The notes below the pieces were generated by a model. The model was not told the DNA's origin. It saw only the letters and a list, made by a program, of their open reading frames with translations, and ran no database searches. A stretch of DNA of 63,691 nucleotides, the filler included, from Reclinomonas americana ATCC 50394 (taxonomy: Eukaryota): assembly GCA_048213135.1 (NCBI GenBank). It is 15 parts of 13 records of this genome, joined end to end, with 100 filler letters (N's around TTAATTAATTAA, not from the genome) between each part and the next. Parts side by side here need not be neighbours in the genome. Positions count along the whole stretch, not along the records: positions 48,174 to 49,650 come from PS016034.1; positions 49,751 to 60,670 come from PS016035.1; 13 more parts are not named here. One strand, 5' to 3'. Position 1 is the stretch's first letter; every line of letters begins with the position of its first letter. The translations under genes and the position numbers were made by a program. This document shows, one piece after another, positions 42,193 to 61,840 of the stretch.

Positions 42193-44999
42193 ATGAGCGA
42201 CACCCCGTCTCTCGTCAGTTGCGAGCCTTCACACACACACTGCACACCAAAGCGCAACACTCATTCCCTTCCTCTCTTCCTCAAGTTGACAATGGCTCCG
42301 GTGTGTGATCACAACAATCACAACTCCCTCTCTTACTCTCTCTCTCTCTCACTGCCTCCCCATTCTCGCCTTTCTTGAACATACAGACAAGTGCAAGGTG
42401 CTTACCTCCCCGCCGCATGCATGCACAGAGCTGTACATTCTCATTCACCACTCCTCCTCACGCAGGCCGGCTTTGGCGGCGATAAAACTTTGCGTGCCGT
42501 GTTCCCTTCGGTCGTGGGCCGGTGAGTGCTCCCTCCCCCTCTCAGCCACCATTATCGATTTCCTTGCGTCTTTTATTGAAATCTCTCTCTCCCTCCCTCC
42601 TATCCCTCCCCCTCTCCCCTCCAACAGCCCAAAGCACCCGGGCAACGGCATCAAGGAAGTCTACGTGGGCGACGAGGCGCAGGCCAAGCGTGACATCCTC
42701 GCGCTACGCTACCCCATTGAGCGCGGCATTGGTGAGTACGAGCACCGTCCCTCCCCGCGGCCCATCATGTGCGTCTCACTTCCGTCCTCCAATGCGCAGT
42801 GACCAACTGGGACGACATGGAGACGCTCTGGCACCACACATTCCACCACGAGTTGCGTGCGGCCCCGGAGGAGCACCGTGTGCTGCTCACCGACGCGCCA
42901 CTCAACCCCAAGGAGAATCGCGAAAAGAGTTGCGCTCCTGTCCGCCCCTCCACCCGCTCTCTCTCTCTTCTCACTGTTTTTTTTAACGCAGTGACGAGCA
43001 TCATGTTCGAGACCTTTAACGTGCCGTCCATGCAGGTTCGGATCCAGGCCGTGCTGTCGCTGTACTCGTCGGGCCGCACCACCGGCGTTGTGGTCGACTC
43101 GGGCGACGGTACGACGAGCTGCGTGCAGATCTACGAGGGCTTTGCGCTGCCGCATGCCATCCAAAAGGTGTTGCTGGGCGGTCGCGATCTCACCGAGTAC
43201 ATGATGAAGGTGTGTGTGTGTGTGTGAGAGAGAGGGAGGGAGGGAGGGAGAAGGGAGGGAGAGGGAGAGAGAAGCGCGAGGGCTTGGTGGTGAAAGAGCA
43301 AGAGAACTCTCTCTCTTTCTCTCTCGTGCTTCACGTTTTCAAAGCTTTTCTTCTGCTGTTTGCGTTTCTCTCACCAGCCTCTCCTTCTGTGCGTGAGAGA
43401 GAGAGAGGGAGAGAGAGGGAGAGAGAAGGGCAAGGACTTGGTGGTGAACGGGCAAGGGAACTCTTTCTCTCTCTCTCTCGTGATTTACGTTTTTAAAAGC
43501 TTTTCTTTTGCTGTTTGCGTTTCTCTCGCCAGCCTCTCCCTCTCTTGTACATGTGCANNNNNNNNNNNNNNNNNNNNNNNNNNNNNNNNNNNNNNNNNNN
43601 NNNNNNNNNNNNNNNNNNNNNNNNNNNNNNNNNNNNNNNNNNNNNNNNNNNNNNNNNNNNNNNNNNNNNNNNNNNNNNNNNNNNNNNNNNNNNNNNNNNN
43701 NNNNNNNNNNNNNNNNNNNNNNNNNNNNNNNNNNNNNNNNNNNNNNNNNNNNNNNNNNNNNNNNNNNNNNNNNNNNNNNNNNNNNNNNNNNNNNNNNNNN
43801 NNNNNNNNNNNNNNNNNNNNNNNNNNNNNNNNNNNNNNNNNNNNNNNNNNNNNNNNNNNNNNNNNNNNNNNNNNNNNNNNNNNNNNNNNNNNNNNNNNNN
43901 NNNNNNNNNNNNNNNNNNNNNNNNNNNNNNNNNNNNNNNNNNNNNNNNNNNNNNNNNNNNNNNNNNNNNNNNNNNNNNNNNNNNNNNNNNNNNNNNNNNN
44001 NNNNNNNNNNNNNNNNNNNNNNNNNNNNNNNNNNNNNNNNNNNNNNNNNNNNNNNNNNNNNNNNNNNNNNNNNNNNNNNNNNNNNNNNNNNNNNNNNNNN
44101 NNNNNNNNNNNNNNNNNNNNNNNNNNNNNNNNNNNNNNNNNNNNNAGAGGGAGGGAGAGGGAAGCGCAAGGACTTGGTGGTGAACGGGCAAGGGAACTCT
44201 CTCTTTCTCTCTCGTGTTTCACGTTTTCAAAGCTTTTCTTCTGCTGTTTGCGTTTCTCTCTTCAGCCTCTCTCTCTCTCTGTGCATGTGTGTGTGAGAGA
44301 AAGAGGGAGAAGGAGAGAGAAGGGAGAGAGAAGCGCAAGAACTTGGTGGTGAACGGGCAAGGGAACTCTTTCTCTCTCTCTCTCTTTCTCGTGTGTGAGT
44401 GCGCCCACTCTTTCGTGTCAGTTGCATCTCTCTGAACGATTACATGCCTGCAGCTGCAGACAGAGTGCGGCCACAACTTCACGTCGTCGGCCGCCGACCG
44501 CGAGATCGTGCGTGACATCAAGGAGAAGCTGGCGTACGTGGCACTCGACTACGACGCCGAGCTGAAGTGCTCGGCGTGTGAGACGACGTACGATCTGCCA
44601 GACGGGCGCGTCATCACTGTCGGGACGGAGCGCTTCCGCTGCCCGGAGGCGCTCTTCAAGCCGTCGCTCATGGGCATGGAGCACGATGGCGTCGACGTCA
44701 TGACCTTCGACTCCATCGAGCGCTGCGACATGGACATTCGCAAGGACCTGTACGGCAGCGTGATGCTCTCGGGCGGCAACACCATGCTGCGCGGCATCGC
44801 CGACCGCCTGCAGAAGGAGCTAAGCCTCCGCGCACCGCCAGCCGTCAAGGTCAAGGTGGTGGCGGCTCCGGAGCGCAATAAGTCGGTGTGGATCGGCGGC
44901 TCCATTGTCGCCTCGGTGTCGTGCTTCGAGAGCGCGTGGGTCACCAGGGCCGAGTTCGAGGAGTCCGGCGTGAGTATCGTGCATCGCAAGTGTTTTTGA
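42193..44999 (+). CDS. Divergent actin / actin-like protein, 8 exons
   Basis: [108 protein letters not shown] and IVHRKCF-TGA. Confidence 0.95.
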
Positions 45000-45717: not shown

Positions 45718-47299
45718 NNNNNNNNNNNNNNNNNNNNNNNNNNNNNNNNNNNNNNNNNNNNTTAATTAATTAANNNNNNNNNNNNNNNNNNNNNNNNNNN
45801 NNNNNNNNNNNNNNNNNTCTCGTCTCTTTCACTCTGTCTTCCTTCGAGCTCTCTTGGCTCTCTGTGTGCCACCGCTGCGACTGTCCCTTCCACTCTTTGG
45901 AACCGCGACGATCTGTATACATGTATGGTGTATATGAGTGCGATCGATTGTTCCTCGCCAACCACTGGATGTTCGCAGGGTCTCGCTGTGCCTGGGATGA
46001 AGAGAACACTGTTTCGAGTGGAAGCAGTTCATCGACAAGCGGTGCGTCTGGATGCTGCGCTGCTGTGTGCGCTCTCCAATTTCCAACATGTGCCCATCCG
46101 AACAGATCGCCGAGAGACTGCGGAAGCGATAGCCGAGGTTGAAACAACGAACGGGGCGCTGCGTCGCTTCGCAAAGCGGTGGAAGGTATTCTTGTGTGCT
46201 TGTCGCGCGCTGGTGTCGCTGGTGCACCAAATTGATGTCGCTTCGCAGAATCATGATCTGCCTCTTGAGTTGGTGCCGTGGACATTCGTGGTCATATGGT
46301 GAGTCTGGAGTAAGCAAAGGGAAACCGTTCACTCCTTGCCCCTGTCTTTAGGGGGAAATTGGGGGCGACATTGCTGATTCTGTGTTGCGAATTAGGCTCA
46401 CCGGCATCTTCCTCATCATCATGACCCTGATCACGGCGTCGCGGTGGGTCTCCATTCGCCAATGTAGGCCATTTCGATTGCCCTGTTAGATTCACGTTTC
46501 GCGCTTATACAGAGTGCTGAATGATTTGGAGGCGGCTGGCAACGGTGGTCTGATTGCCTCGGCGTGTGGAATCAGGTATGGGAACGTGTCCTTCTGTCGC
46601 TTGAGCATTGCACAAGATCGCGTACGTGCTAACTGACAATAATGTGCACGGCAGCGGTGTGTCTGCGTGTGTGGGTACTGTTGTTCTTCTGTCTGTGTTT
46701 GCTCACGAATAATCCCCTCTGCGTACTTTCTGCCGCACCTGGTCGCACATAATCAGTGGTGAGTGCTTTGGTCTATCACACACTGCCTGCTTGAGTTTTG
46801 AACGCAAATGCCTCTGCCTGCAGGGTCAAGGTGTGACGAAGAGGGTATGAGTGTTCTTCGCAAGTCAAACTCACTTTGCGTGTTGCAGACATCCTGATCA
46901 ACGAGCCGCTCAAGATCGTCTTCTTTGCCTTCCTCGGTGCGTGGCGTGGTCGGCGGTATGGATGGCGATGACTCGATGCTGACTCTGTTTTTGCGTCGCA
47001 GGGCTGAGTCACACAGCCATGCTGTCGAGTGCGACTGCTAGCGCTGTTGTGAAGGTTGTGAACGTGGCGACGTGAGGAAACCAGTGAACCACAGCGAGTT
47101 ACATTGTACGGGGAAAAGAGAAGTCACGCGAGTGGGAGGAAGATGCACACAACGATCCACACAAGCACGAGAATGCGAGGTGCCGTAGGCCACTCTACTG
47201 GCTGGCAAGGATGAACAACTAAGAACCGAGAGAATGGGAGGGCTCACCAGCCGAGAATAGCCAAATGTGAGAGAATGGGAGGCTCCTCCGCCCGTTTTT

Positions 47300-48060
47300 G
47301 CGTAGAACATGGGCAACAGGAAATAGTACACAGCTGCACGGAGCAACCAGGTACGAGAGAGTGAGAGGCAACAAATTGGGAGCAACGGACAACGAGAAAA
47401 TGAGAGGCTCATGTACCAGTCTCCGCGAGGAACGTGGGCAACAGGATATAGTACACAGCTGCACGGAGCAACCAGGTACGAGAGAATGTGAGGCAACGAA
47501 CAGAGAGCAACGAAGAACGAGAAAACAAGAGGGCTCACGTGCCAGTCTCCGCGTAGAATATGGGCAGCAGGAAATAGTACACAGCTTCACGGAGCAACCA
47601 AGTATGAGAGAAGGAGAGGCAAAGAAGAGAGAGCAACGAAGAACGAGAGAACAAGAGGGCTCACGTGCCAGTCTCCGCGTATAGTATAGGAAACAAAGAA
47701 CGAGCGAGAGTGCTTGTCAGTCAACCTCCGCGCAGAATGCGGGCAACAGGAAATAGCACGTGGAAAATAATGACAGTGACCAACAGGAGAGAGAAGTCAG
47801 CCTTTTCACAGACGACAGCCAGCGAACGACAGAATGGAAGGCGATGTTGTCGCGGTCGCCAGAGCCGAGAATTGCACTAACAAGCCCCATATATTCAGCG
47901 TAGGCATGCAGAGTGAGAAATAGCACGTGGAAAACAATGACAGTGACCAACAGGAGAGAGAAGTCAGCCTTTTCACAGACGACAGCCAGCGAACGACAGA
48001 ATGGAAGGCAATGTTGTCGCGGTCGCCAGAGCCGAGAATTGCACTAACAAGCCCACATAT
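47300..48060. repeat. Degenerate ~125-bp tandem array (47300-47700) followed by a ~167-bp direct duplication (47750-48060)
   Basis: GGGCA.CAGGA.ATAGTACACAGCT.CACGGAGCAACCA occurs three times. GAAATAGCACGTGGAAAA...GAATTGCACTAACAAGCCC occurs twice. Confidence 0.85.
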
Positions 48061-48715
48061 ATTCAGAGTGGGCNNNNNNNNNNNNNNNNNNNNNNNNNNN
48101 NNNNNNNNNNNNNNNNNTTAATTAATTAANNNNNNNNNNNNNNNNNNNNNNNNNNNNNNNNNNNNNNNNNNNNTCTTCCTCTCCCTCTCCCTCGCTCCTT
48201 TCTCTCTCTCTTCTTGTATGCTGCCTCCCTCCTCTCTCTCTCCCTTCCTCCTCCTTTTTCCTCTCCCTCCTTTCTCTCTCTCTCTCTTCCCGCACTCTCT
48301 CTTCCTGTGTGTGAGAGAGAGCACGGTTGCCTTCCCGACTTTCTCCCTCTTACTCTGTCACCTTGTGCATGCGGCATGCGTGATTGTGAGGCATGTTTGT
48401 TTGCCTGCCTCACTCTCTTCCTCTCCCTCTCCCTCTCCCTCTCCCTCTCCCTCTCCCTCTCTCCCTCTCCCTCTCCCTTCCTCCCTCCTTTTTCCTCTCC
48501 TTCCTTTCTCTCTCTCTCCGCACTCTCTCTTCCTGTGTGTGAGAGAGAGCACGGTTGCCTTTTCGACTTTCCCTCTCCTCCGCTCTCTTCTCTCCTCCCT
48601 CTTTCCCTTCTCCCCTCTCCCTCGCTCCTATCTCTCTTCTCCTCCTTCTCCCTCTCCTCCCCCCCCCTCCTTCCCTCTCTTCCCTCCTCCTTACCCTTCG
48701 TTTCTCCCTTTCCAG

Positions 48716-49650
48716 GTCTTTCGGGGACACACTAGTTGGGTGCTTTTTGTTGCCATCACCCCCGACAGCCGCCACATTGTGAGCGGCAGCTGGGACAATA
48801 CCGTGCGCGTGTGGTCCCTCGCGAACGGTGAGGAGGTGCGACGATTGGAGGGACACACTGGAGCGGTGCTGTCGGTCGCTGTGAGCCGTCGCGGTCAGCT
48901 CGTTGTTAGCGGGGGTGGGGATCGGACAGTGCGAGTGTGGTCGCTGACGAGCGGGAAGGAGGTGCGACGACTGGAGGGTCACACTGGTCGAGTGAACTCG
49001 GTCGCCGTGTCTCCCGACGACGAACACATCGTCAGCGGGGGCGGGGACATGACAGTGCGTGTGTGGTCGCTGACGAGTGGAGAACAAGTGCGTCGATTGG
49101 AGGGACACACCTCCGACGTGATGCGTGTCACGATGACGCCGGATTGCCTGTACATTGTGAGCGGGAGCGACGACACAACCGTGCGAGTGTGGTCCGTGGC
49201 GAGCGGGGAAGAGGTGTGGCGGTGTGAGAGACACACCGATATGGTGCGGTCTCTCGCCGTGACTCCCGATGGTCAGCACGTAGCCAGTGCAAGTGACGAC
49301 GCGACCATTCGAGTGTGGTGCATGGCGAGTGGAAAAGAAGTGTATTGGTTGAAGGGGCACATCAATGGGGTGACATCTCTCGCCATCTCTCTCAACGGGC
49401 AGCACCTTGTGAGTGGGAGTGACGATATGACGATCCGAGTGTGGTCCACGCTGTGTGGCCTCGCCCATCTCGAGCTCGACTGCGCACGATCGGTCATGCT
49501 CATCGTCCAGGAGATGCAGGAGGCAGGCACCGGAGAGGAAGTGGACTCGCGATGCCTGCCAGAGATGGTGCTGCGCTGCTTCATCGTCGAGGAGGCGGAG
49601 GTAATGGTGCACCGTCGAGGCCTCGTTGACCAGCCGCAGTTTTGGAGTGA
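48716..49650 (+). CDS. WD40-repeat protein copy 1 (6 repeats + type A C-terminal domain), main exon
   Basis: Acceptor TTCCAG|GTC, then GH...D..VRVW repeats of 42 aa and the tail GLAHLELDCARSVMLIVQEMQE...DSRCLPEMVLRCFIVEEAEV. Confidence 0.92.
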
Positions 49651-49750
49651 NNNNNNNNNNNNNNNNNNNNNNNNNNNNNNNNNNNNNNNNNNNNTTAATT
49701 AATTAANNNNNNNNNNNNNNNNNNNNNNNNNNNNNNNNNNNNNNNNNNNN

Positions 49751-50268
49751 CGGTTTGGTCTGTCGCTGTCACTCCCGATGGTCGGCACATTGTGAGCGGA
49801 GGTCGGGACACTACTGTGCGATTGTGGTCTGTCGCGAGTGGAGAAGAGGTGCGGCGGTTGGAGGGACACACTGGCCATGGTTGGGTGCTCTCTGTTGCCG
49901 TCACCTCCGACGGCCAGCACATCGTGAGTGCGGGTTCCCAAGACAGCACCGTTCGGGTGTGGTCGCTGGCGGGTGGCGAGGAAGTGCGGCGGTTGGAGGG
50001 ACACACTGACTCGGTATGGTCTGTTGCCGTCACTCTCGATGGACAACACATCGTGAGTGGCAGTCGGGACGGGACGATCCGTGTGTGGTCCACGCCGCGT
50101 GGGCTTGTCCGGCAAGAGCTTGCGGCCGCGCGATCAGCCGTGCTGGCTGTCAACGAGCTGCTTGCTGACGACCACCATGACTGGAACCTGGTCGACGTCG
50201 TGCTGCGGTGTTTTGTGCTGGAGGATGCAGAGGTGATTGAACGCCGTGCGCCAGAGTGGTTGATGTAG
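49751..50268 (+). CDS. WD40-repeat protein copy 2, 3' part (3 visible repeats + type B C-terminal domain)
   Basis: ...GHTDSVWSVAVTLDGQHIVSGSRDGTIRVWSTPRGLVRQELAAARSAVLAVNELLADDHHDWNLVDVVLRCFVLEDAEVIERRAPEWLM-TAG. Confidence 0.9.
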
Positions 50269-50352
50269 AGAATGTCGTCCTTGTCGCCGCAATCAAGTCG
50301 ATTCATTTCAGTCGGATAATAGCTGTTGATCTCACGTGTACGCGAGAGCGGA

Positions 50353-50364
50353 ATGTCGACAAAG
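50353..50364 (+). CDS. First micro-exon (MSTK) of another WD40-family gene; the body is in a gap or is copy 1
   Basis: ATGTCGACAAAG|GTGTGA matches the MATK/MTTK first exons of the other copies. The following intron resembles 48290-48420. Confidence 0.65.
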
Positions 50365-51764
50365 GTGTGAGCGCCTGTGTGTGTGAGAGAGAGAGAGAGA
50401 TGTCATCTCTGTCTGCCTGTCTCTCCACACTCTCCCTTCTTGTGTGTGAGAGAGATCGTGGTTGCTTTCCTGAATCTCTCTCACCCACTCCGTCTCCTTG
50501 TGTATGTGAGGTCTGCCTGTCTCCCCCCCCACACACACACACACTCTCTCTCTGTTTCTGTTTCTTTCTTTCTTTTCAGAGAGAGCATGGCCTTCCCGAC
50601 TTTCTCTCTCTCTTTTTCTCTCTGTCACCTTGTGTCTGCTGCGATACGTGTTTGTGAGATCATGTTTGTTTGCCTGCCTCACTCTTTCTTCTCTCCTTCT
50701 CCCTCGCTGCGCTCCTTTCTCTCTCTCTTCTTGTTTGCTCCCTCCCTCTCTCTCTCTCTCTCTCTCTTCTCCCTCCNNNNNNNNNNNNNNNNNNNNNNNN
50801 NNNNNNNNNNNNNNNNNNNNNNNNNNNNNNNNNNNNNNNNNNNNNNNNNNNNNNNNNNNNNNNNNNNNNNNNNNNNNNNNNNNNNNNNNNNNNNNNNNNN
50901 NNNNNNNNNNNNNNNNNNNNNNNNNNNNNNNNNNNNNNNNNNNNNNNNNNNNNNNNNNNNNNNNNNNNNNNNNNNNNNNNNNNNNNNNNNNNNNNNNNNN
51001 NNNNNNNNNNNNNNNNNNNNNNNNNNNNNNNNNNNNNNNNNNNNNNNNNNNNNNNNNNNNNNNNNNNNNNNNNNNNNNNNNNNNNNNNNNNNNNNNNNNN
51101 NNNNNNNNNNNNNNNNNNNNNNNNNNNNNNNNNNNNNNNNNNNNNNNNNNNNNNNNNNNNNNNNNNNNNNNNNNNNNNNNNNNNNNNNNNNNNNNNNNNN
51201 NNNNNNNNNNNNNNNNNNNNNNNNNNNNNNNNNNNNNNNNNNNNNNNNNNNNNNNNNNNNNNNNNNNNNNNNNNNNNNNNNNNNNNNNNNNNNNNNNNNN
51301 NNNNNNNNNNNNNNNNNNNNNNNNNNNNNNNNNNNNNNNNNNNNNNNNNNNNNNNNNNNNNNNNNNNNNNNNNNNNNNNNNNNNNNNNNNNNNNNNNNNN
51401 NNNNNNNNNNNNNNNNNNNNNNNNNNNNNNNNNNNNNNNNNNNNNNNNNNNNNNNNNNNNNNNNNNNNNNNNNNNNNNNNNNNNNNNNNNNNNNNNNNNN
51501 NNNNNNNNNNNNNNNNNNNNNNNNNNNNNNNNNNNNNNNNNNNNNNNNNNNNNNNNNNNNNNNNNNNNNNNNNNNNNNNNNNNNNNNNNNNNNNNNNNNN
51601 NNNNNNNNNNNNNNNNNNNNNNNNNNNNNNNNNNNNNNNNNNNNNNNNNNNNNNNNNNNNNNNNNNNNNNNNNNNNNNNNNNNNNNNNNNNNNNNNNNNN
51701 NNNNNNNNNNNNNNNNNNNNNNNNNNNNNNNNNNNNNNNNNNNNNNNNNNNNNNNNNNNNNNNN

Positions 51765-52427
51765 CACTAGTGTGTCCCTCCAACCGTCGCACCTCATCCA
51801 GATCGCGACTCGCGAGAGACCACACTCGCAGTATGGTGTCCTCACCTCCGCCCACAATGTGCTGGCAATCGGGCGTGACAACGATGGACCACACCATACC
51901 ACAACGATATTTAGACTGTCGAACCTCTGCGCCAGTTGCCAGCGACCACACACGCAAAATGCCATCGTGACTGTCACTCACGATGTGCTGACCATCGGGA
52001 GAGATGGCCACAGCCGGCGCTCCTGCGACAGCTTCATCGAACCGTCTCACTTCCTCTCCGCTCGGAAAGGACCACACTCTCACTGTCTTGTCCATGCCGC
52101 CAGTCACAATGTGCTGGCCGTCGGGAGAGATGGCGACAGACCACACCTTGTCAGTGTGTCCTTCCAACCGTCGAACTTCTTTGCCACTCGCCAACGACCA
52201 AACTCGCACAGTCTTGTCGAAGCCTCCGCTCACGATGAACAGGCCGTCGGGAGAGACGGCGACACACTTCACCGCGTCTGTGTGGCCCCGCAAGATCTGT
52301 GTCGACCATGGGTACAAGAGTGAGAGAGAGAGAGAGGGAGAGAGAGAGAGAGAGGGAGAGCAACAGCCACCAACACGACTCTCTCCCAAACACACACGCG
52401 TGTGTGTAAGCGCACCTTGGTTGTCAT
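51765..52427 (-). CDS. WD40-repeat protein copy 3, 5' part (MTTK|ILRGHTDAV..., 4+ repeats)
   Basis: ATGACAACCAAG|GTGCGC, acceptor GACACAG, then WD40 repeats until the gap. Confidence 0.9.
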
Positions 52428-52559
52428 TGGAATGAGGAACAATAAATGACTCTGCAGTCCTCTCTCTTTGCAGGATCGCGTCTGTTGACTTCCTGTCTTC
52501 GGAGAGCAAGCCACTTGGTTGGTACTCTACTGCGGTGGTCTCGAAGAGTCTGTTCTCGC

Positions 52560-55500
52560 GAGCGTGTGTGTGTGTGTGATATGCTCGCTCACGATTGTCA
52601 GCGTTTCCCGCCTTTCTTCTCCCGCCTTGCTCCGAGACGTCATTCATCCCTCGCTTGAATGTAGCCAGCACCCCACACAGCATACAGCAGTATGAGAGCG
52701 ACGTGGCTTCTTTGCTGCGTGTGGACTTTCGAAGACCGACACGGGAATCATGCGATATCGGCAGAATGGATATCGATCCATGGATGTGGTGACACAAGAG
52801 GGCGCTCCACTGCACCGTGCACGCACAGCTTCGACTGATCTGCATTCTCTATCAACGAGGACAGGAATGTCGGGCTGCTTGGATGTGCAGCTCTGGCTGA
52901 TGCCACGCACAGAACACCCGGAGTCTATTGCGAGTCATCGAAACCTCATACCTCCTTGGATCGGCCCACAGCGAGGTTGAGGTGACGCAATGAAGAACGA
53001 GAGCCACGAGGAACAGAAGAGGAGCGACCACATGGAAGAGGCAGCTGCGTCGTGAGGCTCGCCTCCCATCACCCAAATCACAATCACTGCCTTGTGCCTT
53101 CAATCACACTCACAGTCGGTCAGTGAATCATCTCACGCAGGTACAGTGTGGCACAGAACCAAGTGTCTTCGCATGCAAGTGGCCAATCACTTGTCGCCTG
53201 TCACACAAACATTTGTGTCAGTCAATCTCCAAGTCTCGCCAACTTGTTCCTCAACACGAGTGTAGAACACGCACTCACCATGTGTTGCTGGCGTCGCACG
53301 TGTGTGCAGTCTCCCATGGCCACCACCAACAAACTCACTTGGCAGTGCCAGCAGCAACCAATGTGCGTACATCATCGATCCGCTCCGACTTGGCAGCCGG
53401 GATTGAAAACGATCCACCGACCAGGCCACCATCGCACATCACGACACGCATGTGTACACCCACCCAGCCACGCACTCCATGACATGCACGGCCTGCACGA
53501 ATGAGGTGAGTGAGTGGGAAGGAGGAAAGAGGGATCAAGACGAACAAGGCCACCCACCTGCTTCGTGCATGGTGGGATGCGAGAAGGGAACCGAGTGAGT
53601 GAGGTGAGAGCCGGCAACGGGCAATGCACACCACGGACTCAAGCGTGTGCAGGAAAGGAGAGGTGGATGACTGGAGACGTAGATGAGCGCACAAAGGAGG
53701 GAGATGGTGGAGAAAGAGAGATTCAGCAAGGAACAGAGAGGGAGGGCTCGCGAGCGGAATGTCTCGCATCCTGCAGAGTCGGAAGGAGAATGTCCGCGGC
53801 GCACAGGTACAATGGGAAGCAGAGTATAGCGGCGCCAAGGAGGTGCGCAAAACAACACGCGAGGGAAACAATCATCGGCGACTCGCTCTCATGAGGCACG
53901 TACATCAGCGACGAAAGATGCACGCACAACAGACATCACACCGAGGGGAAAAGAAATCACAGACTCCAACTGATTCATCTCGCTTGCAACACACAAACTG
54001 AGGTGAGAAAGAGACACCCATACAGAGAGACATGCTTCACGCCGCACCTTCTCATTCATATGACAGGGAAACAAACACGGGAGAACAATTCATCATCATC
54101 ATCATCAACGACCTTTCTCTCCTCCTCTGTCGTCCTCTCTTCCCCCTCCAGAACCCCGCACAGCCACCCACTCTCCCTTGTACGACACGAAACAACTCAC
54201 AATCACCAGCAACCACCGCTCTCCCTCCCTCCGACTCACCAGCTCAGCACCGAAAAAGGACAACCTCGGCATCCTCGACGATGAAACAGCGCAGAACCAG
54301 CTCCGAAAGGCATCTTGAATCTACTTCCTCTTCGTCCTCCTGCATCTCTTGCACAGCCCGCGTGGCCGACCGCGCAGCGTCAAGTTCGAAGCGAGCAAGG
54401 CCACGCGACGTGGACCACACTCGTATTATTGTCATGCCACCGCCACCCGCACTCACAATGTGCAAACCATCGGGAGAGACGGCCACAGACGATACCCATT
54501 CGTCATGAGCCTCCAACCGTCGCACTTCCTCCCCGCTTGCCAGCGACCACACCCGCACGGTGCTGTCTCCGCTCCCGCTCACGATATGCTGGCCATCGGG
54601 AGTAACAGCGACGCAATGCACCCAGTCAGTGTGTCCCACCAGCCGACGCACTTCACTTCCAGTCGCCAGCGACCACACTCGCACGGCGCGGTCGTCGCAC
54701 CCACTGACGATATGCTGACTGTCGGGAGTGACGACAACAGACTGCACCCATCCAGTGTGTCCATCCAGCCGACGCACTTCTTCGCCGCTCGCCAGCAACC
54801 AAACCCGCACTGTGTTGTCCCCACCGCCACTCACCACATGCTGACCATCGGGAGTGACTGTGACGCAATACACCCCTCCAGTGCCTCCTTCTAACCGTCG
54901 CACCTCCTCGCCACTCGTCAGAGACCATACCCGCACGGTCTTGTCCCAACTACCACTCATGATGTGCTGACCATCTGGGGTGACGGCGACAGAGTATACC
55001 ACATCAGAGTGGCCCCCCAACCGTCGAACCTCTTCTCCACTCGCCAGCGACCACACACATACTGTGTTGTCTTGACCCCCACTGATAATGTGCAGGCCAT
55101 CAAGAGTGACGGCGACAGACATTACCCAGTCAGTGTGCCCCTCCAGCCGTCGCACCTCCTTGCCACTTGCGAGAGACCACATTCGAACGCTGCTGTCGTC
55201 ACACCCACCGACAATGTGTTCGCCAGTGGGAGTGACGGTGACGGATCGCACTACTGTGAGACCCTGAATGATCTGCGTCGATCACCCGCGGGTGAGACGC
55301 GCACACAGCAGCGACATTCGAAGACACGCACACACAAGCACACAAACAACTGCCGCTCACATGCACAGGCACACGAATGCACGCACAGACACCAACCACG
55401 CAAAAGTGCGCATACTTTCACACCTTTGTTGCCATTCTCCGTGTGTGTGATTTGCTCGCTCGGGATTGTTACTGTTTCCCGCCTTTCTTCTCCCGCCTTG

Positions 55501-57590
55501 GTCTGAGACGTCGTCCATCCCTCGTCAGGCTGCAGCCAGCAAACAACAGCAACCGGCAGTGTGAGTGACGTGGCTTCGTTGATGCATGCGGGCTTTCGAA
55601 GACCGACATGTGACAGGTCGATGAGAAATCGGCAGAATGGACTAGCAAGGTGACGACACGAGGTTGGCGCTCCACTGCACGGTGCATGTCCAGCGACACT
55701 CTCTTTCGACTGACCTGCATTATCTCTCAACAAGGACTCGCATGTCGGGCTCCCTGGTGTGCTGATGCCATGGCACACCCGAGAATCCATAAAGCACCAA
55801 GTCTTTGAAACCTCACGCCTCCTTGGATCGGCCCACAGCGAGGTTGATGAGGGCACCATGATGGTACAAGGGAGAATGAGAGTCACAGGGAACAGGAGAG
55901 GAACGACCAGTACAGTAGCACGTGCACAGTGGTGGAAGAGGCAGCTGCGTCGTGAGGCTCGCCTCCTCTCACCCAACTCACAATCAATGCCTCGTGTCTT
56001 CAATCACACTCACAGTCGGTCGGTGAATCGTCTTATGCATGCACTGTGTGGCACGGAACCACGTGTCTTCGCATGCCAGTCACTTGCCAGCACGCCTGTC
56101 ACACAGAATTGAGTTAGTCAATCTCCAAGTCTCACCAACTTACTCATCAACGCAGATGCAGAACACGTACGCACCAGGCCACGCGCGCGTCTGCAGTTTC
56201 CCATGGCCATCACCATCATTACTTGGCGGCGACAGCAGCAACCAAGAAGCGCACATCATCGATCCGCTCTGACTTGCCAACCGGGATCGAGAACGATCCA
56301 CCGACCAGGCCACCCATCGGGAAACACGACACGCATGTGTCCACCCATGAGTAGATTGCCGAGCACGCGTCTGCAGTCTTCCATGGCCACCAGCATCATC
56401 ACTCGACAGAGACGGCGGCAGCCAAGGTGCGCACACCATCGATCCGCGCAGACCCGCCAGGCGGGATTGAAAACGATCCACCGACCAGGCCATCCATCGC
56501 ACATCACGACACACATGTGTACATCCACCCAGCCACGCTCTCCATGACGTGCACGGCCTGCATAATTGAGGTGAGTGGGAGGGAAGGAGGAGAGAGAGAT
56601 CACGAAGAACAGGGCCACACAACTGCTGAGTGCATGGTGGGATGCAAGTGGGGAGCCGAGTGAGCGAGGTGACGGTCGACAACGGGCGATGCACAGTACG
56701 CCTGCAATCATAACGGAACAACGAGGGGGACCTGCCCCTAAGTGTGAACGAAGAATGGAGGAAGGAGAGAGATATCTGCTCTGTCTCAACGACGAACACA
56801 CCGATCAGCACCTGATGCCAACACGCGGTTGGTCAAGAGGCAAGCCAAGGGACGCTCACACAACCATCCTGCAAGGGAGAGAAGGAGCAGAGTCAGTATG
56901 CAGGTATGCCACCTCACACACTTCGGCATCGGGAAGCTCACCATGATGGACTGGCAGGATGGCAATCGGAAAACGGTGAGCAGACCAGCATGCTCAGTCT
57001 CGAGCTTGTGCGGCAAGGATGGGGTGGATGACTGGGGAGCAGATAAGCGCACAAAGGAGGGAGACGGTGGAGAAAGAGAGAGACTCTGCAAGGGAGAAAA
57101 AGGGAGAGCGGAATGACATGCATTCTTCGGGGCGGAAGAAGAATGTCCGCGGCGCACGTGCACGATGAGAGGAAAAAATGTGGCACCAAGAAGGTGAATC
57201 AAGAAGCGAGGAAACAAACATCGGTGACTCGCTCTCCCGAGGCACATACATGCACGGCTCAGGATGAACGCACAACACAACAAATATCACAACGAGACAA
57301 GAAAGACACAACAGCCTCCCAAGCAATCCATCGCGCTCGCACAGAAAACTCAGGTGAGAAAGAGACGTACAGAGGGAGACATGCTTCACGACTGCACACT
57401 GTCATTCACATGGCACAACAAGATGCACGGGAGAACAATACACCACCACCACCAACGATCTCTCTGCCTTCCTTTGCCATCTTCTCTTCCCCCACCTGCA
57501 TCCCGCATGATCATGACCACCCGCTCTCCTTCGCAAGACACGAAAAACAACTCACAGTCACCAGTAGCCACCTCTCTCCCTTCGACTCAC
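52560..57590. repeat. Segmental tandem duplication unit of the WD40 array (non-coding flanks shared between copies)
   Basis: 52560-54240 aligns block by block with 55440-57590, e.g. GGAAGAGGCAGCTGCGTCGTGAGGCTCGCCTCC, GATTGAAAACGATCCACCGACCAGGCCA and GAATGTCCGCGGCGCAC. Confidence 0.85.
54244..55435 (-). CDS. WD40-repeat protein copy 4, complete (MATK + 7 repeats + type A C-terminal domain)
   Basis: ATGGCAACAAAG|GTGTGA, acceptor GACGCAG|ATC, seven WD40 repeats, tail GLARFELDAARSATRAVQEMQEDEEEVDSRCLSELVLRCFIVEDAEV. Confidence 0.93.
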
Positions 57591-57594
57591 CGAC

Positions 57595-58784
57595 TCAGCA
57601 CCGGAAAGAGACGACCTCGGCATCCTCCGCGATGAAGCAGCGCAGAACCAGCTCGGCAAGACATCGTGAATCTTCCTCCTCCTCGGTGGCACTCCTCTCC
57701 TCCTGCATCTCCTGCACAGCTCGCATGGCCGAGCGTGCGGCATCGAGTTCGAAGTGAGCAAGGCCACGCGGAGACGACCACACTCGCACGGTGCTGTCTC
57801 CACCCCCACTCACAATGTGCTGACCGTCGGGAGAGACGGCGACACAATACACACATCCGCCATGTCCCTCCAACCGTCGCACCTCCTCACCACTCTCCAG
57901 AGACCACACCCGAATGGTGCTGTCTCCACTCCCACTCACGACATGCTGGCCATCGGAGGTGACGGCGACAGACGTCACCCAGTCAGTGTGTCCCTCCAAC
58001 TGTCGCACCTCCTCACCACTTGCCAGTGACCACACCCACACTGCGTGCTCACTGCCACTCACGATGTGCTGACCATCGTAAGTGACGGCAACAGAGTACA
58101 CCCATTCAGTGCGTCCCTCCAGCCGTCGCACTTCTTCCCCGCTCGCCAGCAACCACACCCGCACGGTGTCGTCGAAACTGCCGCTCACAATGTGCTTACC
58201 ATCGGGAGTGACGACGACAGACAACACCCTTGCAGTGTGCCCCTCCAGCCGTCGTATCTCCTCCCCACTCGCCAGTGACCACACCCGGATGGTGCTGTCT
58301 CCACCACCACTCACGATGTGCTGACCATCGGGGGTTACGACGACACAATACACCCATCCAGTGTGTCCCACCAGCCGTCGCACCTCCATTCCACTCTCCA
58401 GCAACCACACACGTAGGGTGTTGTCTCCACCGCCACTGACAACGTGCCGGCCATCAGGGGTGACGGCGACAGACTGCAACCACGCAGTGTGTCCCTCCAG
58501 CCGTCGCACCTCTTTGCCACTCGCCAGTGACCACACTCGGACGGTAATGTCCATGCATCCACCAACAATGTGCTTGCCGTCGGGAGTGATCGTGACGGAT
58601 CCCACTACTGCGAGACTCTGAATGATCTGTATCAAGCACTCGCGATGAGACGCACACACAACATCAACTTTCAGAAGACACGTACATACACACAATCAAC
58701 AACCGCACACACGCACGAGCACACGAATGCACGCACAGACACCAACCACGCAAAGTGCGCACACATTCACACCTTTGTTGCCAT
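57595..58784 (-). CDS. WD40-repeat protein copy 5, complete (MATK + 7 repeats + type A C-terminal domain)
   Basis: Same two-exon structure, tail GLAHFELDAARSAMRAVQEMQE...DSRCLAELVLRCFIAEDAEV. Confidence 0.93.
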
Positions 58785-58789
58785 TCTCC

Positions 58790-58821
<32 letters not shown>

Positions 58822-59728
58822 GCGTGCGTGTGTGTGTGTGTGCGAGAAAGAGAAAGAGAGTTTGTGTGTGTGCGTGCGTGCGTGCGTGTGTGTGTGTGTG
58901 TGAATTAAATAGAAGCACCAACTAGTACTGTGATTCATCCGACGGAACATCAACATCAACTCTCTCTCGCGCGTGTGTGTGCGCCTCGTGGTGCTGTCTG
59001 TGTTTCTGTACCCCCTGTCTCTCCGCATCCTCGTCGTGGTGCTACATTCTCAACCAGCAATGTGAGCGAGATGTTGCGGCATTGAATGTGCATGCATGCA
59101 TGCCAGTTCTTACTCGACACGCCTCGAACGTCAACCCCTCTGTGTCACGGGCGGAGAGTCCAGCAACACACGATTCACAAAGAGAGCAACGAGGCAGCGC
59201 AGTTCGTGAGTGCGGTGCGTCACACCATTTGTTCAGGACACACACACATGCGGGAAACGAGTGCGCAGGGCAAGTGCACTCCCTCCCTCCTCGTGGCGTG
59301 TGTGGCGAGATGGGTGGCCCTCTGAATCGATGCTTAATGCGCTCTCCATGTTCATGCGGTGCCGGCGCCAGTGTGAGAGGGGGAGGCGGGCAATGATTGC
59401 CAGTGGCCGCTGCTTCAACGCCGCGTTCGAATGACAGGGCGACATGAAGGCACAAGCACAAGGCGGGTGGGTGGGTGAGAGAGCGAGGACTCGCCCAACG
59501 CCGAGCAGCACGCATATCTATTCATTCCATGGCCTCACCTCAACCACCCACACACACACGCCTCGCACTCGGGATTCTCTTCTTGCGCACTGCACCGTGC
59601 TGTGTTGTATCTGCTTTCCGGCTGCCTCCACTTGACAAGGCAGTGGAGAAGAACGTGTGAGGCCGTGTGGCGGTCAACAGGAGAGAGTTGCACACACACA
59701 GCCATCGGTCTTCGTACATTCATTGAGC

Positions 59729-60022
59729 TCACTCCGTCCAGCACCATCCAGGCGCACGGCGTTCAATCACCTCTGCATCCTCCAGCACAAAACATCGCAG
59801 CGCGACGTCGACCAGGATCCAGTCGCGATCATCTTCGTCGACAAGCACCTCGTTGACGGCCAGCACGGCCAGTCGTGCGGCCGCAAGCTCTTGCCTCGCA
59901 AGCCCACGCGGCGTGGACCACACACGGATCGATTTATTCGCACTGCCACTCACGACGAGCTGGCCATCGGGAGTAACGTCGACAGAGTATACCCATCCAG
60001 TGTGTCCCCCCCAACCGTCAAC
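59729..60022 (-). pseudogene. WD40 family copy 6, truncated to one repeat + type B C-terminal domain
   Basis: GHTGWVYSVDVTPDGQLVVSGSANKSIRVWSTPRGLARQELAAARLAV...DWILVDVALRCFVLEDAEV. The preceding VRRLEG linker is frameshifted (GTGTTGACGGTTGGGGGGGACAC) and unrelated sequence follows upstream. Confidence 0.65.
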
Positions 60023-60459
60023 ACTGCGCAACAGGAACAAAGGAAAGAAAGAAGAAACAATCAGATGAGAGAGTGGGTTGTGACGCAAGAGGACAGACAT
60101 CGGCGAACGGGATGCAATGAGGGGAATGAGTGAGGAGTAGCGTGCTGCAATTACGTGGGTGCAAAAGGAAGAGAAGAGAGGGTAGGCACAAATCGGAGTG
60201 GGGAGGAAGAGGATAGCAAGCGAGGAACGCGGCACAGTGACGAGCAAGCATCCCTCAATCGACACGAAGCAGAACAATGCGAGACGAGAAGAAAGAGAGA
60301 GTGGGCGCACGGAGGCATGAACAATGCAAGTGCATGACATGAAGGAAGGAGAAAATGGCGGATCTTGAGAAGCGGACGATGGAGAGGAGGGAGGCATTGA
60401 AAGGGAGGCCACTGAAGAGCGCTCAGCTAATTATAACAAAGAAGAGAACGAAATGAGGT

Positions 60460-61840
60460 GAGAAGGAGAGTGGGCGGATGCGTGAAAGATGCAAGTGAAA
60501 AGAGATCAAAGAAGGAGAAAGGGACCGAAAAGGGAAGTCCTTGAAGCACAGAGAGGTGAGGAGAAGGAGAGTGAGAGTGGATGGAGGCGTGAAGGATGCA
60601 AGTGAAAAGAGATCAAGGAAGGAGAAAGGGACCGAAAAGGGAAGTCCTTGAAGCACAGAGAGGTGAGGAGNNNNNNNNNNNNNNNNNNNNNNNNNNNNNN
60701 NNNNNNNNNNNNNNTTAATTAATTAANNNNNNNNNNNNNNNNNNNNNNNNNNNNNNNNNNNNNNNNNNNNAGACACACAGCCGTGCTCTCACCAAGAGAG
60801 GAGGAGGAGAAGAGGGATAAGAGAGTTGAGAGAGAGAGAGAGGAAGGTGAATAGGGAGAGAGTATGTGGGAGGAAGAATTGTGCAACCAAGCGGAGCAAT
60901 GGCGAGTCAATGCACGAAGACACACAACACGTATGGCGAGAGAGGAGGAGGAGAGAAGAAAAAGAGAGGCAGGGAGAAGAGAGTTGAGAGAGAGGAAGGG
61001 AGGTGAATAGGGAGAGAGTACGTGGGAGGAAGAATTGTGCAATCACGCGGAGCACTGGCGAGTCAATCCACTTTCAGCAAGAGAAGGGACGAGAATGAGT
61101 GAAAGCGAATGAGGTGAATGAAACAGGAAATACAAAGCAATTCGAGTGGGCGGAATGGTATACATCAGGCGATTCCACGCACGCAGACACACACAGCCGT
61201 ATACATCAGGCGATTCCACGCACGCAGACACACACAGCCGTGCGTGCTCTCAGCAAGAGAGGTAGACGAGGAGAGGAAGGGAGGCGAAGAGGGATGCGTG
61301 TGGGCGGAAGAACTGTGCAATCAAGCGGAGCAGTGCACGAAGACACGCAACACGAATGGCGAGAGAGGAGGAGGAGGAGAGGGAGAGAGTGAGACAGAAG
61401 AGAAGAAAGGGAGAAGAAGGGAGGCGAAGAGAAAGGAACGGTGGAAGGGAGGAAGAGAGGTAGAATTGTGCAATCAAGCGGAGCAATGGCGAGTTGATGC
61501 ACGTTGGTACACACAGTCATGCTCTCAGCAAGAGGAGGAAGAGGAGAGGAAGGGAGCTCGAGGCGAAGGTAGGTGAAGATTGCGTGTGGGCGGAAGAACT
61601 GTACCATTACGAGGAAGCAGTGGCGAATCCAAGCACGAAGACACGCAACATGCACGGCGAGAGAGGCGACGAGATATATAGAGAAAGAATGAGACAGCAA
61701 GGTAGGTAGGGAGTGGAGAGAGGGAGAGAGGAAGAGAGAGGAAGGGAGGAAGGGGGAAGAATTGTGCAATCACGAGGAGCACTGACGAGTCAATGCACAC
61801 AGATACACACAGCCGTGCTCTCAGCAAGAGAGGAGGAGGN
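60460..61840. repeat. Degenerate direct repeats in purine-rich sequence
   Basis: GAAGAATTGTGCAA.CAAGCGGAGCA.TGGCGAGTCAATGCAC and ACACACAGCCGTGCTCTC recur many times. A ~110-bp duplication lies at 60485-60670. Confidence 0.8.

Follow-up and report, generated by a model that had tools for sequence, protein, structure and literature searches.

The jakobid Reclinomonas americana ATCC 50394 carries, at positions 48716-60022 of a 63,691-nucleotide stretch of its genome assembly GCA_048213135.1 (joined parts and filler included; hereafter the window), a tandem array of WD40 genes in which variable repeats precede a constant tail. The array belongs to a several-hundred-member, tandemly duplicating family whose products each pair a single seven-bladed WD40 propeller with a constant two-helix tail. 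We propose that each propeller would bind a different foreign or fast-changing protein through its variable face; the tail would dock the propeller on one shared partner, most plausibly the ubiquitin-transfer machinery; and the docked machinery would then tag the bound target for destruction. As to history, an older, intron-rich family of propeller plus tail may have gained an intronless 42-amino-acid repeat of the kind found in NOD-like receptors (NLRs), and expanded afterwards.

We put the probability of this explanation as a whole, ubiquitin included, at about 0.4, and regard its narrower core, a variable binder on a constant dock, as probable. Foreign targets, which an earlier sequence-only reading of the window had already proposed as non-self recognition, we infer, as we do the docking role of the tail and a partner in the ubiquitin system. 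Nematode F-box receptors show the same combination of a variable face and a constant part under purifying selection (PMC8120010), and we therefore favour a repertoire of binders whose tail reaches a shared partner. That pattern was reportedly set out for nematodes by Thomas in 2006.

The array and its family

The array comprises six WD40 loci and one orphan first exon. Window positions 45818-49650 are contig C1132 and positions 49751-60670 are contig C1133, and the spacing between the first gene (G1) and the rest is not fixed by the assembly. The features are as follows.

48716-49650, plus strand: G1, coding exon with six WD40 repeats and the tail; the first exon lies outside contig C1132
49751-50268, plus strand: G2, 3' part, with the last three repeats and a type-B tail; the contig start truncates the 5' end
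50353-50364, plus strand: orphan exon 1 (MSTK, then GT) of a seventh gene; exon and intron span 50353-50776, and the intron enters the gap
50777-51764, no strand: assembly gap of 988 N, concealing the 3' end of G3 and the body of the seventh gene
51765-52427, minus strand: G3, with exon 1 (MTTK) at 52416-52427, a 119-nt intron, and exon 2 from 52296 into the gap; four repeats visible
52750-58798, no strand: units of about 3.2 kb that have duplicated together with their non-coding flanks; 53638-55449 and 56999-58798 are 77% identical, 52750-53462 and 55621-56347 are 74% identical
54244-55435, minus strand: G4, with exon 1 (MATK) at 55424-55435, a 151-nt intron, and exon 2 at 55272-54244; seven repeats and a type-A tail
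54247-54417, minus strand: tail of G4, about 57 amino acids (helix, acidic linker, helix with L[P/V]xxVLRCFxxEDA), with no Pfam family
57595-58784, minus strand: G5, with exon 1 (MATK) at 58773-58784, a 146-nt intron, and exon 2 at 58626-57595; seven repeats and the tail
59729-60022, minus strand: G6, a relic with a single repeat and a type-B tail

G3, G4 and G5 have the same layout: a four-codon exon (MxTK, then GT), a phase-0 intron of 119-151 nt and a single long exon. The intron of the orphan exon is 73-85% alike to the DNA preceding G1, and relics of the G6 type also border other arrays of the family. The arrangement described in the sequence-only reading is thus upheld: paralogues lie on both strands, a four-codon exon, one repeat exon and a shared tail are seen in G4 and G5 (the four-codon exon also in G3), G6 is a decayed copy, and the flanks are duplicated. 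That reading also had repeat number varying between copies, which is true within the window (7, 7, 6 and 1) but is a minor feature family-wide, since 126 of 139 sampled genes have exactly seven.

Pfam finds seven WD40 repeats in G5, seven in G4 and six in G1, and no match for the three tails. An AlphaFold2 model of G4, built from a 58-sequence alignment, has a seven-bladed propeller followed by helices at residues 288-312 and 321-340 (mean predicted local distance difference test score, pLDDT, 93.7), and its closest fold is 5yzv, the repetitive bacterial WD40 domain of PkwA (root-mean-square deviation, rmsd, 1.1). The seven PF00400 matches and the predicted fold agree that G4 is a seven-bladed WD40 propeller. 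Full-length homology searches return generic repetitive WD40 proteins, mostly unnamed or bacterial; across the repeats, the bacterial relatives reach 58% identity.

Genome-wide, a stringent nucleotide pattern of the tail motif matches exactly at 477 places and its reversed control at none; diverged tails escape this exact pattern. Searches with the two tail types gave at least 150 and at least 151 matches (150 candidates scored for each), and a search with G5 gave 127, the best protein match other than itself being 83% identical (116 of 3530 candidates scored). Eight contig pairs at other loci look like alleles and are 89-96% identical, which makes this a strongly heterozygous assembly with part of its loci present twice. 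Because two haplotypes of a locus frequently appear side by side, the genes may number only about half of 477. The array is not itself an assembly duplicate: the nearest other copies of 52300-58900 are only 73-87% identical (13 of 1855 candidates scored). Among the candidates scored we found no near-identical second haplotype of the array, whereas ordinary loci have one. Within the window's subfamily of 41 genes, mean identity is 80.6% and the maximum 95.1%.

We assessed intactness in 235 distinct tails from fetched loci, a sample biased to close relatives, of which 187 are complete and 139 have at least four repeats. The great majority of these 139 are intact (128, or 92%), with seven frameshifted and four carrying stops; the four-codon exon pattern is present in 89 of 135 genes. 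The number of tail motifs, arrays on many contigs and the coexistence of intact and broken copies bear out the proposed birth-and-death family. As to transcription, a protein derived from an expressed sequence tag (EST) and labelled Reclinomonas americana in EukProt is 100% identical over 116 amino acids to contig C5977. This one EST, the sole transcript evidence, shows that one family member is transcribed, but the matching frame of C5977 has an in-frame stop upstream of the matched part, so that the EST may stem from a transcribed pseudogene.

Upstream of the array lies a divergent actin-like gene (window 42709-44999, last exon 44436-44999, plus strand), named from its likeness only. Contigs C1128, C1129 and C1131 are numbered between the window's pieces yet lie outside it, and C1131 carries three more broken family members. 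The filler between parts (for example 48074-48173) consists of 44 N, a 12-base stop linker and 44 N.

Variable sites, selection and blade exchange

Hypervariability falls on repeat positions 4, 5, 7, 23 and 25 (numbered from the GH dipeptide), which carry 3.0-3.7 bits, against at most 2.2 elsewhere, in 408 type-A repeats; it is seen with either tail type and in the NLR repeats described below. Positions 5/7 and 23/25 flank an invariant V and D with the same spacing as codons 7/9 and 25/27 of the Podospora HNWD repeats; selection there is reported at codons 7, 9, 25 and 27, as pairs flanking conserved sites (Paoletti et al., PMC1805685). Because of this match in spacing, 5/7 and 23/25 were taken as a-priori test sites. 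The variable sites would form the top binding face, a placement that rests on the match to HNWD sites rather than on the G4 model.

In a codon model with a fixed tree of 41 paralogues, the ratio of nonsynonymous to synonymous rates (dN/dS) was 2.0 at the a-priori sites (likelihood-ratio test, LRT, 177), 0.25 in the framework and 0.15 in the tail. When the a-priori sites were given a separate synonymous rate, their dN/dS was 1.41 (LRT 9.8). A tree-free comparison agrees in direction, codon positions 1-2 at the four sites differing at 0.53-0.59 against 0.33-0.40 at four-fold sites, and 164 distinct four-site codes occur among 224 repeats. Several results pull the other way. With the separate synonymous rate, only positions 4 (4.5) and 23 (2.0) are clearly above 1, and recombination may inflate tree-based dN/dS. 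Among closest pairs, which are disjoint and drawn from all subfamilies, dN/dS at the four sites is 0.53 in the eight pairs at or above 93% identity (mostly allele-like) and 0.92 in the eight at 88-93%, and a five-site bootstrap over the 16 pairs at or above 88% gives 0.72 (0.56-0.88); in the eight pairs at 84-88%, the four-site value is 1.22. The ratio at the HNWD-type paired sites is therefore above 1 across paralogues and below 1 in the closest pairs, which we read as diversification after duplication, with alleles more constrained.

Repeats are 73.7% identical within a gene, 76.9% identical to the same blade of other genes and 73.9% identical to other blades. The nearest neighbour of a repeat is the same blade in another gene in 179 of 224 cases and a different blade in 37. 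Moreover, 27 of 147 blades are at least 92% identical to a gene that is at most 82% identical at its other blades, where a crude binomial predicts about six; G5 is such a mosaic, its blades 2, 3 and 7 being 93%, 95% and 99% identical to three different paralogues. We conclude that blades have been swapped between paralogues, mostly in register. Four-fold-site identity between blades of one gene is 0.60, against 0.38 expected, so the likeness of the repeats exists at the DNA level; we reject the idea that the repeats are alike through protein constraint alone.

With its raised replacement rate at HNWD-type sites and its mosaic blades, the family fits the diversifying binding face of the sequence-only reading. 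Two related claims fared less well. The repeats were described as highly similar, and they are indeed alike, but the best internal identity of G1, G4 and G5 is 0.69-0.73, below the fungal rule for high internal conservation of 85% over 100 amino acids (Dyrka et al., PMC4986451); over 84-amino-acid windows, internal identity reaches 0.85 in one of 87 stand-alone genes and in 7 of 18 NLR genes. Similarly, HNWD-like shuffling had been suggested, and exchange does exist, but repeat number is nearly fixed and the exchange mostly links like blades.

A recombination-prone, recently amplified WD40 cassette, with unconstrained exposed loops, mostly redundant copies and no driving target, would account for part of this picture. 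Close-pair dN/dS does not exceed 1, relics and broken copies occur, units duplicate together with their flanks, and variation at such hot-spot sites is general among young repetitive WD40 proteins (PMC5587647). We nevertheless consider genomic drift of this kind unlikely, given the 92% of sampled genes that are intact, the purifying selection on framework and tail, and replacement distances that, at the variable sites, are roughly double those of four-fold sites, which is more than lost constraint alone gives.

The constant tail and a possible link to the ubiquitin system

The tail is about 55-65 amino acids long, with two predicted helices joined by an acidic linker. In 40 tails, Pfam found no family common to more than one member and no F-box. 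A tail profile had no matches among PDB sequences at E 10, and the ESM Atlas gave one match, at 0.77. A structural model of the tail matched no viral structure at E 0.001; against 48,161 solved chains its best Z was 9.0 (rmsd 2.3, 63 residues aligned), tied with many unrelated, generic helical hairpins. The tail pattern was also sought in viral and metagenome contigs, where 1 of 12 and 3 of 68 pattern matches passed tblastn; all four are chance motifs in unrelated frames.

The 40-tail profile found 12 proteins among 1.84 billion representatives, from which P0132 was discarded as a repetitive, unrelated protein; the best of the 12 is the EST-derived Reclinomonas americana protein mentioned above. 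An older form of the tail (EPLPxxVLRCF) ends very divergent, intron-containing WD40 genes of the same genome, and this form is also found on propeller proteins of other organisms, two of four long matches having WD40 or propeller Pfam hits. We conclude that the tail is a module which can be combined with different N-terminal parts, and that it predates the repeats of the window family. The tail also stands behind frames of 780-830 amino acids that look beta-rich and have no Pfam match (contigs C980/C1360), and behind a helical region (C51:381528-382571) in an open reading frame without a Pfam match; a short stretch preceding that region is one that we take to resemble the start of ubiquitin.

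Several observations point towards the ubiquitin system. In contig C5123 (743-1673) and an allele-like copy, C4521, a two-exon gene encodes a divergent domain resembling E2 ubiquitin-conjugating enzymes, followed by the tail, and neither frame is interrupted between the E2 strands and the tail. The PDB matches of this domain are nearly all E2 enzymes (best E 0.008), and its Atlas match scores 0.89 with 173 shared features. Helix 2 of the tail fits the Cul2-box consensus PhiPxxPhixxxPhi (PMC3355856), placed after a first helix, in register in 153 of 251 tails, or in 231 of 251 if V is allowed for P. The genome encodes Skp1 and two divergent Elongin-C-like paralogues (C46:181450-181830; C568/C210). 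Finally, the tail is nearly without lysine (17 K to 761 R), K/(K+R) being 0.02, against 0.16-0.18 in the propeller and NACHT parts; lysine scarcity is reported for VHL and SOCS1 (PMC10665810). The Elongin-C-like paralogue on C46 has a loop insertion in common with ENA protein P0133, and neither Skp1 nor Elongin C was found in viral contigs.

Other observations weigh against a ubiquitin connection. The E2-like domain of C5123 matches PF00179 at E 1.8e-4 with 21.5 bits, short of the Pfam cut-off of 27; its catalytic cysteine is uncertain; and the combination of E2-like domain and tail, represented by a single gene, may have arisen by chance. The Cul2 consensus, for its part, is a short and loosely defined pattern, and V replaces P in 82 of 251 tails. 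The strict BC-box ([STP]LxxxC/S/AxxxPhi) occurs in 8 of 251 tails, against four in shuffles, and a looser form of it in 115, against 53; comparison of the tail profile with 12 F-boxes of the same genome gave a probability of 0.3%; and the SOCS_box model found nothing in the genome (none of four candidates). As for lysine, the propeller's content equals that of the NLR repeats, and tail residues are not independent samples. Identifying the partner of these 55 residues would identify the effector arm of the whole repertoire.

The NACHT sister family and known systems

Contig C99 (103000-107200) holds a broken chimera of NACHT, pentapeptide and three repeats with the tail of the stand-alone family. 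With its NACHT region as the query, at least 125 further regions matched at 77-88% identity when 125 of the 229 candidates were scored. From 19 of 20 fetched loci we read 20 long NLR frames of 1190-1660 amino acids. In these, NACHT and pentapeptide parts score above cut-off and are followed by as many as about 14 repeats of the window-family consensus and by a different C-terminus; the tail is absent from all 20. The same NACHT-pentapeptide(PPR)-WD40 arrangement has been described in Mortierellomycota and Mycoavidus (bioRxiv 2021.12.02.471044). The head gives a weak Swt1-HEPN match (E 0.04-0.07, below cut-off), and an RxxxxH-like motif in this possible HEPN-like head differs among copies (for example contigs C400, C131, C56:37840, C360 and C85). 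None of the window genes shows a NACHT domain: in G3-G5 the repeats start straight after the four-codon exon, and G1, G2 and G6 lack their 5' ends. The sequence-only reading, which set the genes apart as lacking NACHT, was therefore right about the window; elsewhere in the genome, however, at least 125 NACHT genes are built from this repeat.

In four tail genes, 20 repeats match NLR repeats with a mean best framework identity of 92%, as against 80% for the window's subfamily; of these 20, 13 cluster with seven NLR repeats (clade support 0.96). The window's subfamily itself has a best framework identity of 91% within its own kind and 83% to NLRs. On a tree of 270 repeats, the NLR or stand-alone label switches 43 times (shuffled mean 75), the sequences being short and the resolution low. 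NLR genes and tail genes occur on common contigs. We conclude from these repeat comparisons and the C99 chimera that the NLR and tail families have exchanged sequence.

The tail proteins could be sensors detached from the NACHT-WD40 receptors, or helpers or decoys for them, dealing with the same kinds of ligand and acting through or against NLRs, without ubiquitin. The shared repeat with its variable sites, the four tail genes whose repeats are nearer to NLRs, the C99 chimera and the common contigs are all consistent with this. On the other hand, the window's subfamily shows no recent NLR exchange, none of the 20 NLR frames carries the tail, and the tail, which predates the NLR-type repeat, is also found on unrelated propellers and on the E2-like domain; we rate such a role, too, as unlikely. 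Less probable still is a repertoire of variable binders on a constant dock that serves the cell's own proteins or discriminates self from non-self between individuals (in regulation, mating or fusion): allorecognition is indeed the role of Podospora HNWD sensors selected at these sites (PMC1805685), and the array, among the candidates scored, is without the near-identical second haplotype that ordinary loci have, but hundreds of rapidly turning-over specificities would exceed the need for conserved self targets.

We thus favour variable binders of foreign proteins docked on ubiquitin machinery. In a bolder form, which we hold doubtful, the tail would be an undescribed docking box of the ubiquitin system, and one shuffled pool of WD40 repeats would feed two immune arms in a deep-branching, bacterivorous protist: the NACHT signallers, at least 125 in number, and the several hundred receptors with one propeller each, which would enlist an E2 or a cullin ligase for the destruction of their bound targets, possibly by pairing their hairpin with that of the E2-tail protein. 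If the tail is a ubiquitin adaptor, it would be a new type of box, and the "variable E3 receptor" strategy of nematodes and plants would reach Discoba. The jakobid has hundreds of variable propellers on one constant tail, with repeats shared with a large NLR family, which bears on the intracellular recognition of viruses and bacteria by free-living protists. WD40 repeats, HNWD-type sites and tandem birth and death are already known; the tail, the scale of the family and the repeat pool shared with NLRs were not found in the literature searched, which excluded most subscription journals and supplements.

Among known systems, the HNWD/NWD genes of Podospora anserina (HET-D, HET-E; PMC1805685) likewise contain 42-amino-acid WD40 repeats that resemble one another in their DNA; their loci exchange repeats and include pseudogenes, and their variable sites form pairs on either side of a conserved V and D. 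Unlike them, the window family has no HET or NACHT domain, a single propeller of nearly fixed size and a constant C-terminal tail; internal identity is about 70% rather than 85-100%, and there are hundreds of genes rather than ten. The NLRs of Mortierellomycota and Mycoavidus (bioRxiv 2021.12.02.471044) share their architecture with the jakobid sister family but differ from the window genes in having NACHT and pentapeptide, and the jakobid NLRs add the possible HEPN-like head. Highly or moderately repetitive WD40 proteins (Hu et al. 2017, PMC5587647; PkwA, 5yzv) are similarly young, internally similar propellers with variable hot spots, and the window genes, with a best internal identity of 0.69-0.73, would lie near the 0.7 boundary of that study; the genes there are scattered, and its accessible text has no comparably large family with a shared tail. 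Tandem birth-and-death arrays that combine a selected substrate-binding part with a conserved adaptor part are found in the F-box families of nematodes and plants (PMC8120010). WSB1 resembles the window family in joining WD40 repeats to a C-terminal helical box, in its case a SOCS box, and VHL-box proteins share the Cul2-box-like pattern of helix 2 (PMC3355856). In contrast to cullin-ligase receptors, the window family has no canonical BC-box, SOCS box or F-box, and its tail, a putative binder of Elongin C, Skp1 or a cullin, is predicted to form two long helices.

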